Of a stretch of 64,000 nt of DNA, positions 16,708 to 22,847 are shown piece by piece. The DNA comes from a virus. Lineage: Duplodnaviria; Caudoviricetes. The notes under the pieces were generated by a model. The model made no database searches. It was not told where the DNA came from and saw only the letters and a program-made list of their open reading frames with translations. The position numbers and the translations under genes were made by a program. Positions within the stretch are counted from its first letter, which is position 1. Every line of letters starts with the position of its first letter. The stretch covers positions 192,658 through 256,657 of IMG/VR virus record IMGVR_UViG_3300014590_000001; one strand, written 5' to 3'.

Positions 16708-17880
16708 GTGCCTACTAAAAAAGCACGGCAAAAACCGTTAACAGAAGAGGAAATGCGTAAAGAGGTGCTATTAAAGTCTCCGCTTCCTGCGTGGCAGAAA
16801 GAAGAGATTCGCGCTGGTCGCATTCCTGAAGCGTCGGAAACAAAGGCTGTAAAGAAAGTTAAGAAAGTAAAATCGAAACCTGAAGAAAAAGAGGTTGCTG
16901 ATAAAAAGGTGAAACCCAAACCGAAGGTGAAGATTAAAAAAGAGAGGACGTTGAAAATTTATCAACTGGCTGCGCTATACGAGTATTATCATCGTAACAC
17001 CGTGCTGGAAGATTATTCGCGCTGTCCTCCAATAACGATTGCAGAGGCTACGGAACTGGTCAAAGATATTAAGTCTTCTGATCTGGAATCGTGGCCTGAA
17101 GTTGATCGTTTATTTAAAAATCATCCAACACCTTCACGCGAAAATAAGAACGTTCTCGTGCAACATCAATACGATGACATTCGAGAGTTTCGACACGCTC
17201 TTATCGAGAAGGAAATTTATGTCGGTATCAGTATTCCGTTGTTCATCGAACATTTGAAAATCGATCTGGATGATCCGATCATGCTAAGTTTTTCTTACGT
17301 GTGGTCTGGTTACATTAAGACGATGATCGAACGTAAAAAGAAGCGCGGCGATATTCTTTCGCGTCACGCATCTACCGTTAAGGACGGAGTGTATTGTTTC
17401 GAGATTGAGTGTAACGCAGAGCAAGCAAAAATCTTAGACCGCTATTGTGAAGTTGCGCATGGCACTTTGATCGCTGCCCGTGATTATCTCAAGACTTTAG
17501 GCAAACGCGCTCCGTACAAGCTGGACAAAATCAGCAATAAACTTGCTACTCAAATTCGCGCAGAGCATGGCTTCGAAGATGTTCCGCGCAGTTTGGTTGT
17601 CAGCGCCCTTAACGGCTACGCACATAAAGTAAAATTCGATCCTAGCAAAGAGTTTAAAAAAGAACTCTCTCGGTTCTACCTGAAAGATTCTTTTAAACTG
17701 CAAGAAGATTCTCTGACTGTCGGTAAAGCCAAAGATATTGCTATTCGAAAAGTTGTGAGCGGTGAACCACTGACGTTTAAAGTTGTTGGCGTGAGTTTCC
17801 AGCGCGTTTCTCCTTTGGTGTATACGGTCGCGATTCAGTATTGCGATATCGAATACCAGCGGAGTAAATTTTCTAAATAG
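16708..17880 (+). CDS. hypothetical protein; C-terminal half resembles TnpB N-terminal HTH/REC/WED region, no RuvC
   Basis: YCFEIECNAEQAKILDR...FEDVPRSLVVSAL...LTVGKAKDIAIRK...VGVSFQRVSPLVYTVAIQY parallels the IS605 OrfB pattern, by eye. Confidence 0.5.
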   Translation: MPTKKARQKPLTEEEMRKEVLLKSPLPAWQKEEIRAGRIPEASETKAVKKVKKVKSKPEEKEVADKKVKPKPKVKIKKERTLKIYQLAALYEYYHRNTVLEDYSRCPPITIAEATELVKDIKSSDLESWPEVDRLFKNHPTPSRENKNVLVQHQYDDIREFRHALIEKEIYVGISIPLFIEHLKIDLDDPIMLSFSYVWSGYIKTMIERKKKRGDILSRHASTVKDGVYCFEIECNAEQAKILDRYCEVAHGTLIAARDYLKTLGKRAPYKLDKISNKLATQIRAEHGFEDVPRSLVVSALNGYAHKVKFDPSKEFKKELSRFYLKDSFKLQEDSLTVGKAKDIAIRKVVSGEPLTFKVVGVSFQRVSPLVYTVAIQYCDIEYQRSKFSK

Positions 17881-20393: not shown

Positions 20394-20715
20394 CGCACTG
20401 AATCGCAAAGGGGAAGATAATCAAGTCTTCCCTATTACTTTGGATACTCCGCTCGTAATATACGAAACGGACGGTATGATATTTGTTGGCTCTCTTGCTG
20501 ATTACGGTGACGGCATTTGGATTTTAGATCCGCATCTGTACAACACTGAAACCGACTCATACACTCCGGTAAAAATCTCATTCAAGTTTAATGCTGGCGA
20601 AGATATTCGCAAAGTTCTCAACTCTGATGAAATTCGCTTTTATGCGAGGACTGCCAATTTTAATCTCGGAATGATCTCTGGCGTTCCGTTTGTTTTCGAT
20701 ACAAGGATTCATTGA
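20383..20715 (+). CDS. hypothetical protein
   Basis: 110-aa ORF overlapping both neighbours. Confidence 0.65.
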   Translation: MLSDALNRKGEDNQVFPITLDTPLVIYETDGMIFVGSLADYGDGIWILDPHLYNTETDSYTPVKISFKFNAGEDIRKVLNSDEIRFYARTANFNLGMISGVPFVFDTRIH

Positions 20716-21290
20716 TGAAACTCGTTTTTGATTGGGATGATACTGCGCTGCTTACGCATCCTTACTACGTTAAAGTTCTGAAAGAAACTCACGGCGATGA
20801 TCTGCCGCTCGATCAGTATTTCACGAAAGACAACGGCGGCTCTGGTTTCCTCGGTCTGATGGAATCCGGTAGCTTCATGGATAAAGTTGAAATTCGCTCT
20901 GGCTTTATCGAAATGATTCGCCGTCTGGTTGCAGAAGGTCACGAAGTTTATTCGTGTTCGCATCGTGGTTATCATCGCATGGGTCACGTACTCACGCGTA
21001 AACTTTTCACCGAAGAAGAGTGGAATCTTTTCACTGAGCATTACTTCCTCGATCCGTTTGTTGCACCAAACAAAGTTGAGTTTCTGCAAGAAGTGTTCGA
21101 CGGCGAAGATTTTATTATCTTTGATGATCGACCTCACTTCACCTGCGAGCACAACGAAGAAGATGCTGAACATATTATTCTGTTTGATCAGCCGTGGAAC
21201 AAAGAACTTCCTTTCGACCGCGTGTTTGCATTCGACGAAAACTTTATTTCTGTTCTGGATAAGAAGTTGGAAATTTATTCTAATTTCTAA
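20715..21290 (+). CDS. HAD-family 5'(3')-deoxyribonucleotidase-like phosphatase
   Basis: VFDWDDT (DxD motif I), CSHR, NK, IIFDDRP and FDQPWN. Confidence 0.8.
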   Translation: MKLVFDWDDTALLTHPYYVKVLKETHGDDLPLDQYFTKDNGGSGFLGLMESGSFMDKVEIRSGFIEMIRRLVAEGHEVYSCSHRGYHRMGHVLTRKLFTEEEWNLFTEHYFLDPFVAPNKVEFLQEVFDGEDFIIFDDRPHFTCEHNEEDAEHIILFDQPWNKELPFDRVFAFDENFISVLDKKLEIYSNF

Positions 21291-21292
21291 TC

Positions 21293-21569
21293 TCGCACCG
21301 CAAGAAAAAAGTTTCGTTGTGGTACGGCGAGCTTGCATATGTGCGTTTACACGGAGCGCACAACATGGCAGTAAGACTCGCCAAGTGCCTATCACGCTAA
21401 GGCACTTTAATCTGCGTGGGGGTTTGTTCGGAGGTTCCGACAGCTTACGGGCAAACTCCAAAGCGACTAACAAAAAGTTTCTTTGGAGTTTGTCCAAAAC
21501 TAAAATGATGAAATAAGATTTAACTTTACCCTGGAGGGAACCGAAGACGACGCGGTTCCCTTTTTTTTT
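21293..21569 (+). ncRNA. candidate structured non-coding RNA
   Basis: Intergenic, with at least five stems, a CTAATTT motif just upstream and a terminator at the 3' end. Confidence 0.5.
21535..21569 (+). terminator. intrinsic terminator
   Basis: AGGGAACCG...CGGTTCCCT followed by a T run. Confidence 0.85.
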
Positions 21570-21574
21570 GATCC

Positions 21575-21585
21575 AAATCTGTAAA
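21575..21585 (+). promoter_or_regulatory. AAATCTGTAAA class 1 promoter motif
   Basis: Exact copy upstream of the dnaX-like gene. Confidence 0.7.
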
Positions 21586-21623
21586 TTCCATGTATACAAT
21601 CAATCCGGTATGGAACTGAAAGA

Positions 21624-22847
21624 ATGGCGAAAGTAAAGAAACGCTCTTTTGACGGCGAAGGTAAAGTTGTCAAGAAGAAGAAAAAGTCAGGCGTAGAAAT
21701 GGAAGTGCTGTCTACGATTAACTTTGCAAACAAGTATCGTCCGACCAGCATTAAAGATTTCATCGGTCAGCCTCATATTCAAAAACAATATGCAGGTTGG
21801 TTGAAAACTAAAACTTTCCCATCGGTTATTTTAATCAGTGGGCATTTGGGTTCCGGCAAAACTACGTTCGCAGGTATCATCGCTAAAACAATTAACTGCG
21901 ATACGCTTGATGCTTGCGGTGAATGTCCGTCGTGTAAAGCGTATGATGCAAAATGTCACCGCGATGTTCTCACCTACGATATGGGTAACGACAGCGGTAA
22001 AGTTGACGGCGCTCAACGCATTATCGAAAGCAGTAACTTGTCTCCTATGTATCGTCGCCGCGTATACATTCTTGATGAAGCGCATTTGATGACTTCTCAA
22101 GCGGAATCGAAATTCCTTATTCCGTTAGAGAATCCGGCACCGCATACTGTTTGGATTCTGGTGTCAACCGATCCGCAAAAGATTAAGAGCACAATTCTTT
22201 CTCGCTGCGTTAAGCTGCCAATCAACCCAATCGATCCGGAAGTGATAGCTGAACGTATTCGTTATCTGGCGAAGAAAGAAAAGATTCTGCCGAAAGACAA
22301 GAAAGAACTGAAAGCGGCAAACGAAGCGATTGAAACTATCGCTGAATATTCTGGCGGCCAGTTGCGTGGCGCTATCGGTTTATTCCAGACTGTATACAGC
22401 GCGGTGAAAGGTGGTGAAACTTTCAATAATGATTTGGTGCTGGATATGGCGGCATCCGATCCGGAAATCAATTTAGGTGATCTGGCTGTAGAATTTACGG
22501 CAGGTTATTTGAAAATGGATCTGGTTGAAACTATTCGCACCATTCGTTCGACAGGTGATATTCGCGGTCTGCTGCACAAGACACGCTGGCTCTTGCATTA
22601 TATCCTCGGTGATATTGCGAAGACGAATAAGTTTCAAACTGCTGAACTGCGCAAATTCTATGACGTGCGTAAAAAGAACAAGTTTGAAATTTCCCCTATC
22701 TCTGTAATCTATTTGCAGAAAGCGTTGTGTGATATTGAATTGGCGATCAATAGTTCCAGCATTCCCGTAGAAGTGATGTTTGAAAGTACAATCACTGGTT
22801 TAATGTCGGATATCTATTCCGGTAAACTTTCAGTCAAATTGAAGTAA
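21624..22847 (+). CDS. dnaX: DNA polymerase III gamma/tau-like clamp loader ATPase
   Basis: KYRP, GHLGSGKTT, NC...CGECPSC, ILDEAH, LENP and TILSRC. Confidence 0.9.
   Translation: MAKVKKRSFDGEGKVVKKKKKSGVEMEVLSTINFANKYRPTSIKDFIGQPHIQKQYAGWLKTKTFPSVILISGHLGSGKTTFAGIIAKTINCDTLDACGECPSCKAYDAKCHRDVLTYDMGNDSGKVDGAQRIIESSNLSPMYRRRVYILDEAHLMTSQAESKFLIPLENPAPHTVWILVSTDPQKIKSTILSRCVKLPINPIDPEVIAERIRYLAKKEKILPKDKKELKAANEAIETIAEYSGGQLRGAIGLFQTVYSAVKGGETFNNDLVLDMAASDPEINLGDLAVEFTAGYLKMDLVETIRTIRSTGDIRGLLHKTRWLLHYILGDIAKTNKFQTAELRKFYDVRKKNKFEISPISVIYLQKALCDIELAINSSSIPVEVMFESTITGLMSDIYSGKLSVKLK

Follow-up and report, generated by a model that had tools for sequence, protein, structure and literature searches.

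Introduction

Several described classes of RNA have features in common with the locus reported here, a candidate structured RNA in a stretch of 64,000 nucleotides (hereafter the window; positions 192,658 to 256,657 of the IMG/VR virus record IMGVR_UViG_3300014590_000001, which represents a complete virus of 256,657 bp with terminal repeats). GOLLD (RF01998), ROOL (RF03087) and the like are, as is this RNA, borne by phages, several hundred nucleotides (nt) long and folded into complex pseudoknotted structures with covariation, and no function is assignable to them from sequence. Riboswitch and attenuator platforms, ColE1 RNA II and hok mRNA contain one strand with two mutually exclusive partners, of which the upstream one pairs first and the downstream one forms the more stable helix, and the same arrangement is predicted here. 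The omega RNAs or reRNAs of TnpB and IscB are pseudoknotted scaffold RNAs of similar size, and a gene for a TnpB-like protein lies 3.4 kb upstream of the RNA in the window. In T4, the pseudoknot of gene 32 mRNA is the translational operator of a replication protein; there, as here, an H-type pseudoknot within a phage replication module is followed by A/U-rich unstructured RNA. The T4 element was noted to be without an Rfam model in a csRNA survey (PMC10690425). We consider, with high confidence, that the conserved pseudoknotted non-coding RNA of the window, its fold included, is genuine.

Results

Position and fold of the RNA

The candidate RNA sits in a gap of 333 nt. On one side is a gene (20712-21290, plus strand) for a protein of 192 amino acids with weak resemblance to HAD-type phosphatase or polynucleotide-kinase families; on the other is the clamp loader gene (21624-22847, plus strand), the product of which matches Pfam DNA_pol3_delta2 (5e-28). 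The RNA is about 270 nt long, extends on the plus strand from about 21293 to the terminator at 21560-21569, and shares its strand with the replication genes, which lie just downstream. A total of 25 distinct homologues (23 core sequences, Erwinia phage Y3 and Yersinia phage fHe-Yen9-02) span six lineages of Enterobacterales jumbo phages of 250-270 kb (Dickeya, Erwinia, Yersinia), and their position is constant, between the HAD-phosphatase-like gene and the clamp loader gene and on the strand of these genes. Among named phages the closest are JA11, JA13, JA29 and JA33 (Salmondvirus), which are jumbo phages of Dickeya solani with about 78% nucleotide identity. The elements of the RNA are as follows.

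21297-21303 with 21317-21323, inner 21304-21307 with 21312-21315, plus strand: hairpin P1; 93.8% of cells paired in the Salmondvirus alignment
21326-21382, plus strand: P2, long and bulged, with outer helix 21326-21331 with 21377-21382, GUAAGA at 21371-21376 and apical hairpin at 21340-21362; covariation
21383-21390 with 21400-21407, plus strand: hairpin P3, stem 1 of the pseudoknot; 100% of cells paired
21393-21397 with 21414-21418, plus strand: pseudoknot helix, CACGC of the P3 loop with GCGUG; A-rich loop 3 at 21408-21413
21419-21430, plus strand: segment 1, G-rich, immediately 3' of the pseudoknot and serving as the 5' strand of P5; pairs with 21448-21459 over 12 bp
21432-21446, plus strand: mini-hairpin P3b, AGG with CUU; conserved UUCCGACAG loop
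21448-21495, plus strand: long hairpin P4, 21449-21463 with 21481-21495, inner 21465-21468 with 21476-21479; 5' arm 21448-21459 shared with P5
21496-21535, plus strand: linker, A/U-rich and unstructured; invariant TTACCCTG at 21526-21533
21536-21569, plus strand: intrinsic terminator, 8-bp stem 21536-21543 with 21553-21560, 9-nt loop, T9 at 21561-21569

The original prediction, made from this DNA alone, had described a structured intergenic RNA with mutually exclusive stems, and upon indexing of the sequence all its stems were found in place: accgcaa/ttgtggt at 21297-21303 with 21317-21323; ggcgag-cttgc/gtaag-a-ctcgcc at 21326-21336 with 21371-21382, enclosing tgtgcgtt/agcgcaca at 21340-21347 and 21355-21362; aagtgcct/aggcactt at 21383-21390 with 21400-21407; the 15-bp stem at 21449-21463 with 21481-21495; and the strong terminator downstream, with 8-bp stem, 9-nt loop and T9. 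The H-type pseudoknot had gone unnoticed there.

Covariation of the pseudoknot

An anchors-only script returned one and the same arrangement for every sequence, with the 5-7 nt located directly 5' of the G-run having a perfect complement in the P3 loop. The pairing is perfectly Watson-Crick in 25/25 homologues, through eight lineage-specific sequences, as listed below (L007 is a more distant copy on a metagenomic contig, the clamp loader of which is 79% identical).

Window: CACGC:GCGUG
JA phages: CCCGC:GCGGG
L007: CCCAC:GUGGG
Yolo lineage: CCCUC:GAGGG
Alexandra group A: CCGCAC:GUGCGG
Alexandra group B: CCGUGUC:GACACGG and CCGUGCU:AGCACGG
Y3: CCUGCAC:GUGCAGG
Yersinia phage: CCUCU:AGAGG

For the six 5-mer classes tested against each other the cross matrix is block-diagonal, that is, each downstream strand fits the loop of its own lineage only. 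In shuffled upstream segments such a match would arise with a probability of 1-6% per sequence, and the combined p of 7e-8 assumes ten independent types, those truly independent being the six 5-mer classes only. H-type geometry, with stem 1 of 5-8 bp, loop 1 of 1-6 nt, stem 2 of 5-7 bp and an A-rich loop 3 of 6-8 nt, was observed in 23/23 core sequences and also in Y3 and the Yersinia phage.

The count of paired cells was limited to the Salmondvirus alignment, the other lineages being parsed by script, because MAFFT alignment across lineages shifts the pseudoknot strands by 1-2 columns. In this alignment 92.9% of cells are paired, and pairs changed on both sides number 10, compared with 3.5 +/- 1.5 in shuffles (0/500) and 0-3 in slid controls. 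The pseudoknot within Salmondvirus alone has 100% of its cells paired, with 2 double changes. As to stem 1, the inner C-G pair of P3 was changed to G-C independently in two lineages, and a U-A pair was changed to C-G.

Other helices of the RNA

Changes in P1 are pair-preserving transitions (C-G/U-G and G-U/A-U), and the length of its tip varies. The outer helix of P2 is rebuilt from lineage to lineage, being GGCGAG:CUCGCC in the window and the JA phages, GAACGAG:CUCGUUC in L007, GAGAG:CUCUC in the Yolo lineage, GCGAGG:CCUCGC and GCGG:CCGC in the two Alexandra groups, and (AU)GUGAG:CUCAC(GU) in the Yersinia phage. Its 3' strand is preceded in every lineage by (G/A)U(A/C)AG(A/C), which is GUAAGA in the window, and its apical part is swapped or much enlarged in other lineages. 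A kink-turn at GUAAGA was rejected by eye, the required G-A being absent from the opposite strand.

The three pairs of P3b covary (A-U/G-C) within Salmondvirus, and its counterpart in Alexandravirus and Y3 is a helix of about 11 bp with many compensatory changes; the loop is C-rich in both, CCGACA in the window and CCGUCA in Alexandra and Y3. The base of P4, ACUCCAA/UUGGAGU, is invariant across all homologues, and the tip of P4 covaries freely.

Folding of the plus strand gave -104.6 kcal/mol, compared with -75.9 +/- 5.5 for dinucleotide shuffles (z = -5.28, 0/200). The z value for the minus strand was -4.65. We assign the folded molecule to the plus strand because the matches of the covariance model (described below) always lie on the strand of the flanking genes. 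The original prediction of a plus-strand structure with G-U pairs is in agreement with this assignment and with the G-U or U-G pairs present in several helices.

Comparison with known RNA families

All 4227 models of Rfam 15, including riboswitches, ribozymes, GOLLD, ROOL and HEARO, were searched against the whole window, with zero matches at the gathering threshold. A permissive search (E up to 10) of positions 21200-21650 gave chance-level matches only, below 19 bits, and the same loci of five relatives, the larger Erwinia versions included, gave nothing relevant. Neither tRNA nor transfer-messenger RNA (tmRNA) genes were detected by ARAGORN in the 64-kb window, and no description of the RNA was found by literature search. 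The initial view that the element is neither tRNA, tmRNA nor a known riboswitch is thus borne out by both searches, and its description as a novel phage non-coding RNA is upheld by compensatory changes over six lineages, by the empty Rfam search and by the analysis of coding capacity below. A sponge for CsrA/RsmA was set aside, as GGA motifs, two or three of which are conserved, are by eye no commoner than expected by chance.

Coding capacity

As a different explanation for the conservation, the region could be protein-coding, either through the +1-frame open reading frame (ORF) at 20929-21516 (plus strand), which covers most of the RNA as well as the 3' half of the upstream gene, or as a frameshift extension of the upstream gene. 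It is true that a stop-free plus frame spans the whole RNA region in JA13, JA29 and L007 (97-99 codons, shuffle p = 0.009-0.026) and that the window has a stop-free run of 74 codons in this region. However, substitutions in the RNA region are distributed over the three codon positions as 15/17/21, without the third-position bias of the flanking genes (30/18/69 and 57/46/164); the open frames agree in codon phase in only 54/274 columns; and most indels are not multiples of three, with 4-9 such indels per sequence pair. In the other five lineages no unusual open frame was found apart from that of Yoloswag itself, a marginal run of 124 codons (p = 0.029), and the open frame of JA13 would continue through both the terminator and the promoter. 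A coding origin of the conservation is accordingly judged extremely improbable; the RNA region is not protein-coding.

Two annotated coding sequences (CDSs) for a 'hypothetical protein', gp204 of Yoloswag (L038:1682-1846) and fHeYen902_106c of Yersinia phage fHe-Yen9-02 (L110:3256-3462), overlap the RNA, and both calls are probably annotation errors. A role of the pseudoknot as stimulator of frameshifting or read-through was also rejected, its distance past the stop codon being about 100 nt in the window and up to about 400 nt in Erwinia phages.

Alternative pairing of P5 and P4

The original prediction had proposed that the 5' arm of P4 can instead pair with ggggtttgttc at 21419-21429. This pairing is present and reaches, with G-U pairs, 12 bp (P5, 21419-21430 with 21448-21459), segment 1 and the 3' arm of P4 being near-repeats with 21448-21459 as common partner. 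The length of P5 is 12 bp in the window, 11 bp in each of JA13, JA29 and L007, and 10 bp in the Yersinia phage. Its variable eighth pair tracks the partner (G-C, A-U or U-G), and the Yersinia P5 is a perfect 10-bp helix of quite different sequence, with GGAGUAUGCC occurring twice and GGCAUACUCC once. In the Erwinia lineages P3b is long and independent, and only GGRG:CUCC (4 bp) competes with P4. The proposed conformational switch is therefore preserved by three-way covariation in the Salmondvirus and Yersinia lineages and not in Erwinia, and by sequence comparison the extended switch is lineage-specific. The three-way constraint on CUCC may explain the unchanging base of P4.

When the transcript is cut before the 3' arm of P4, the predicted fold is P5 capped by P3b (-21 to -24 kcal/mol), and the full-length fold gives P4 (-34 to -39 kcal/mol), which is more stable than the P5 state by 12-14 kcal/mol. 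Because the cut transcript folds to P5 and the full sequence to P4, the upstream P5+P3b hairpin is predicted to form first during transcription and to be displaced thereafter. A second toggle is found around the outer helix of P2 in the Yolo and Yersinia lineages (ACUCUCAC:GUGAGAGU against GAGAG:CUCUC, and GCUCACGU:AUGUGAGC against AUGUGAG:CUCACGU).

Such an alternative pairing of three segments, adjoining a conserved pseudoknotted core as in riboswitch expression platforms, raises the question of a cis-acting attenuator or riboswitch, in which the 5' domain and the pseudoknot would sense a ligand or phage protein and P5/P4 would set read-through into the clamp loader and later replication genes. 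The location of the RNA, immediately upstream of the replication genes and on their strand, and the strong terminator downstream of it in the window's lineage would fit such a function. The terminator, however, lies outside the alternative pairing, about 40 nt of unstructured RNA away, and neither P5 nor P4 touches it (21536-21560). The sole candidate antiterminator, GGUUCC pairing with GGAACC of the terminator, was rejected, the pairing being lost in L007. In addition, the clamp loader has a conserved promoter-like motif of its own past the terminator, the downstream gene varies by lineage, P4 is not followed by a terminator in the Erwinia and Yersinia RNAs, and no riboswitch of Rfam was matched. 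Read-through control by this RNA is thus considered unlikely; so also is a classical riboswitch for the clamp loader, because the downstream context varies and the terminator is outside the toggle.

Transcription signals around the RNA

The elements flanking the RNA that may direct its transcription and that of the clamp loader are as follows.

21281-21286, plus strand: TAATTT, possible -10-like element, within the last codons of the upstream gene
21578-21586, plus strand: TCTGTAAAT, promoter-like motif outside the RNA, ahead of the clamp loader gene and behind the terminator
2341 (minus strand) and 7187, 16665, 21578, 52082, 55466 and 60317 (plus strand): exact copies of TCTGTAAAT, mostly just upstream of genes

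CTAATTT at 21280-21286 had been put forward as a possible promoter. The motif is present and recurs: in the Salmondvirus, Yoloswag, Alexandra and Y3 lineages CTAATT(T/A) precedes the first RNA helix by 15-25 nt. In the Erwinia phages the stretch is non-coding, and at the corresponding site of the Yersinia phage there is only a looser box of TAATAT type. A sigma-70 consensus did not emerge, and a promoter role of CTAATT(T/A) is suggested by conservation alone.

At the other end, the terminator stem includes 6 G-C pairs among its 8 bp, and it was missed by a simple scanner because the loop limit of the scanner was 8 nt. The hairpin and U-run are kept in 4/4 Salmondvirus-type sequences, with changed stem sequence in L007 and JA13; in the MAFFT alignment A2, where the stems are shifted by indels, they count as only 78.6% paired. 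In the linker, TTACCCTG is invariant in the four Salmondvirus-type sequences, and its flanks vary. No terminator follows P4 in the Erwinia and Yersinia RNAs; what follows is a membrane-protein ORF in the Yolo lineage, and the promoter motif with an ORF of 65-74 amino acids in Alexandra, Y3 and Yersinia. TCTGTAAAT occurs in the window in 7 exact copies and 34 times at no more than one mismatch, compared with 20.7 +/- 4.8 expected, and is kept before the clamp loader gene in all lineages. It is probably a phage-specific promoter element, and the clamp loader seems to own its promoter.

In Erwinia and Yersinia phages a small hairpin whose loop reads A-N-GGAG-U and, after it, a strong terminator lie just upstream of the RNA (L037:1715-1825, L008:1670-1765 and L110:3120-3195); this hairpin is not in the window's lineage. 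Its GGAGU matches the ACUCC strand of P4. The hairpin may represent an independent small RNA of about 75 nt, or an attenuator through which synthesis of the large RNA is gated.

With respect to expression, an adapter-flanked metatranscriptome contig of one study spans 21419-21560 and ends at the terminator stem, and a contig of a second study spans 21364-21582. These data are assembled contigs, in which strand, ends, level, gaps in cover over the clamp loader and differences of depth are unusable, and the ends at 21560 and 21582 are a weak hint of transcription at most. A further contig of 1074 nt from a relative (run X20) tracks the window to 21422, just past the pseudoknot strand, and continues with 30 unrelated letters that resemble the reverse complement of the pseudoknot-plus-GGGGAG region; this junction may be a template-switch artefact at a structured RNA.

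The same boundaries bear on the view that the RNA is a structured 3' untranslated region (UTR) of the upstream operon, from the peptidase to the HAD-phosphatase genes, which would stabilize or process the mRNA and perhaps be cut to a 3'-derived small RNA with the terminator as Hfq-binding module. The RNA starts 3-6 nt past the stop codon (21288-21290) of the upstream gene and, after an A-rich stretch, ends at a nine-U terminator, and the adapter-flanked contig ends at the same terminator stem. The nine-U terminator and the A-rich linker that such an Hfq-dependent RNA would use are present in the window's lineage only and are missing after P4 in the other lineages. A stabilizer, on the other hand, needs a terminal hairpin only, and not a covarying pseudoknot, a conserved bulge and two toggles over six lineages, and the RNA is set apart from the upstream gene by a terminator in the Erwinia and Yersinia lineages. 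We regard a 3' UTR as quite unlikely.

Distribution among jumbo phages

Conservation of the gap in JA13, JA29 and JA11 is roughly equal to that of the flanking genes. Reading of syntenic gaps in Erwinia jumbo phages revealed a larger version of about 400-480 nt with core words in common, namely, (G/A)UAAGAC, GGGGAG and ACUCCAA...UUGGAGU. A gapped pattern made from these words retrieved many Alexandravirus-type genomes from IMG/VR; a scan of metagenomes with the pattern gave 14 matches, with one new variant only (L102), and a second scan of IMG/VR gave 16 new loci, of which 0 were confirmed by covariance model. This model, R1, covers a core of 156 positions with 3.18 effective sequences. It recovers all 23 core sequences at 78-158 bits, finds a single copy in the window's own genome, and detects the RNA at the syntenic site in Erwinia phage Y3 (Sasquatchvirus; E = 5e-28) and in Yersinia phage fHe-Yen9-02 (E = 2e-10).

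Among the distant jumbo relatives Lu11, PaBG, NCTB, Afa-NA1 and KpLz-2_45, model R1 gave no significant match, and Lu11, PaBG, NCTB and KpLz-2_45 have no matching gap before the clamp loader. Four candidate sets were rejected: 21 matches to the 15-mer GCACTTTAATCTGCG were set aside as chance; L034 is a terminator in a 378-kb contig that shares the P4 words by chance; a family of prophages of about 40 kb was discarded, the gapped core pattern having matched inside other sequence; and a 14.5-bit model match in Serratia phage Moabite was discarded as chance. In the sequences searched, the family has so far been seen only in the 250-270 kb jumbo phages of Dickeya, Erwinia and Yersinia, and was found nowhere else. 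A 42.7-kb contig of metatranscriptome run X17 covers the whole 2.7-kb stretch with about 92% identity; such a close unsampled relative of the phage would supply independent sequence for covariation.

The syntenic gap of Alcaligenes phage Afa-NA1 (L114:1960-2330) contains at least five iteron-like repeats (CAACTGATACATGAG and variants), followed by the promoter-like motif AATCTGTAAA, and could be a replication origin. Such repeats at the syntenic position are one of the observations compatible with a replication-origin or primer transcript, comparable to ColE1 RNA II or the T4 origin transcripts, in which refolding would decide priming. The RNA is located in the replication module beside an A/T-rich stretch (A+T of 62-66% at 21450-21600), and its sequential alternative folding and conserved G-run are reminiscent of ColE1 RNA II. 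The cumulative minimum of GC skew, however, is at about 199-205 kb of the genome and the RNA at 213.9 kb, a distance of 10-15 kb; the RNA locus itself has neither iterons nor DnaA-like boxes; and the terminator would stop the transcript before any downstream priming site. A priming function is on these grounds very unlikely.

Discussion

Taken as a whole, the reading that this locus is a non-coding RNA gene of an uncatalogued family, equipped with a P5/P4 folding switch, appears to us somewhat better than even. As to the function, our best guess, which we rate at less than even odds, is that the RNA acts on its own in the replication module, as a structured scaffold or regulator. The RNA has its own terminator in the window's lineage, then comes the promoter-like motif of the clamp loader, and the downstream context varies by lineage, all of which support a stand-alone molecule. 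In the proposed sequence of events, the P5+P3b hairpin would be the first to form during transcription, and P4 would then displace it, freeing the G-rich GGRG strand beside the pseudoknot. The weakest parts of the proposal are its last steps, in which the stand-alone RNA may serve as a protein-binding or regulatory scaffold of the replication module, and the toggle would control access to GGAG-like and CUCC elements.

Several observations weigh against this reading. No sigma-70 consensus promoter was found for the RNA. In the Erwinia and Yersinia phages the upstream hairpin and terminator leave a promoter no room, and the RNA there may be read-through; in the window's lineage, the close approach of the RNA to the upstream stop codon means that it could be a 3' UTR. 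The metatranscriptome contigs cannot show a discrete transcript, its ends or its strand. The extended P5 is absent from the Erwinia lineages (4 bp of overlap only), and independent sequences are few, being drawn from six lineages with 3.18 effective sequences in the model.

One more specific form of the scaffold can be proposed. A TnpB-like protein that lacks RuvC (16708-17880) was found by tblastn only in the lineages carrying the RNA, in 22 records and always 3-5 kb upstream. Because these lineages share the whole block of genes, the co-occurrence is a lead and not independent evidence. In this proposal the RNA would be the scaffold of the nuclease-less TnpB-derived protein (and perhaps of the TV-Pol polymerase) encoded a few kilobases upstream, forming on its pseudoknotted core a ribonucleoprotein (RNP) that would start or target phage DNA replication, with the toggles timing its assembly during transcription. 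We consider this highly improbable; if true, a transposon nuclease would have given rise to a replication factor that is guided or scaffolded by RNA.

Because a multi-domain pseudoknotted RNA has been kept at one site of the replication module in six lineages, it is very likely important to the phage. The RNA would offer a compact natural case of programmed refolding, with two toggles each under three-way covariation. Should it have a protein partner, for example the neighbouring protein derived from TnpB, the ribosome or a regulator of the host that binds RNA, a new type of phage RNP would be defined. Jumbo phages of Dickeya and Erwinia are under development for biocontrol of soft rot and fire blight, and their RNA biology is almost unexplored.

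Set against the systems introduced at the outset, the jumbo-phage RNA differs from each in architecture or context. The omega RNAs overlap their nuclease gene at its 3' end, whereas in the window six ORFs separate the end of the TnpB-like ORF (17880) from the start of the RNA (about 21293), and there is no Rfam match. The T4 gene 32 element is small and lies in the 5' leader of the gene that it regulates, whereas the jumbo-phage RNA is multi-domain and is followed by a terminator and a promoter before the next gene. In contrast to riboswitch platforms, RNA II and hok, P5/P4 overlap neither a terminator, nor the ribosome-binding site of a conserved downstream gene, nor a known priming site. Relative to GOLLD and ROOL, the RNA gives no covariance-model match, is shorter (about 270 nt in the window, about 400-480 nt in the Erwinia phages), is not located beside tRNA genes (none being in the window), is confined to one group of Enterobacterales phages and possesses conserved alternative pairings. 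The RNA family is new, and the broad category to which it belongs, that of orphan structured phage RNAs, already has precedents.

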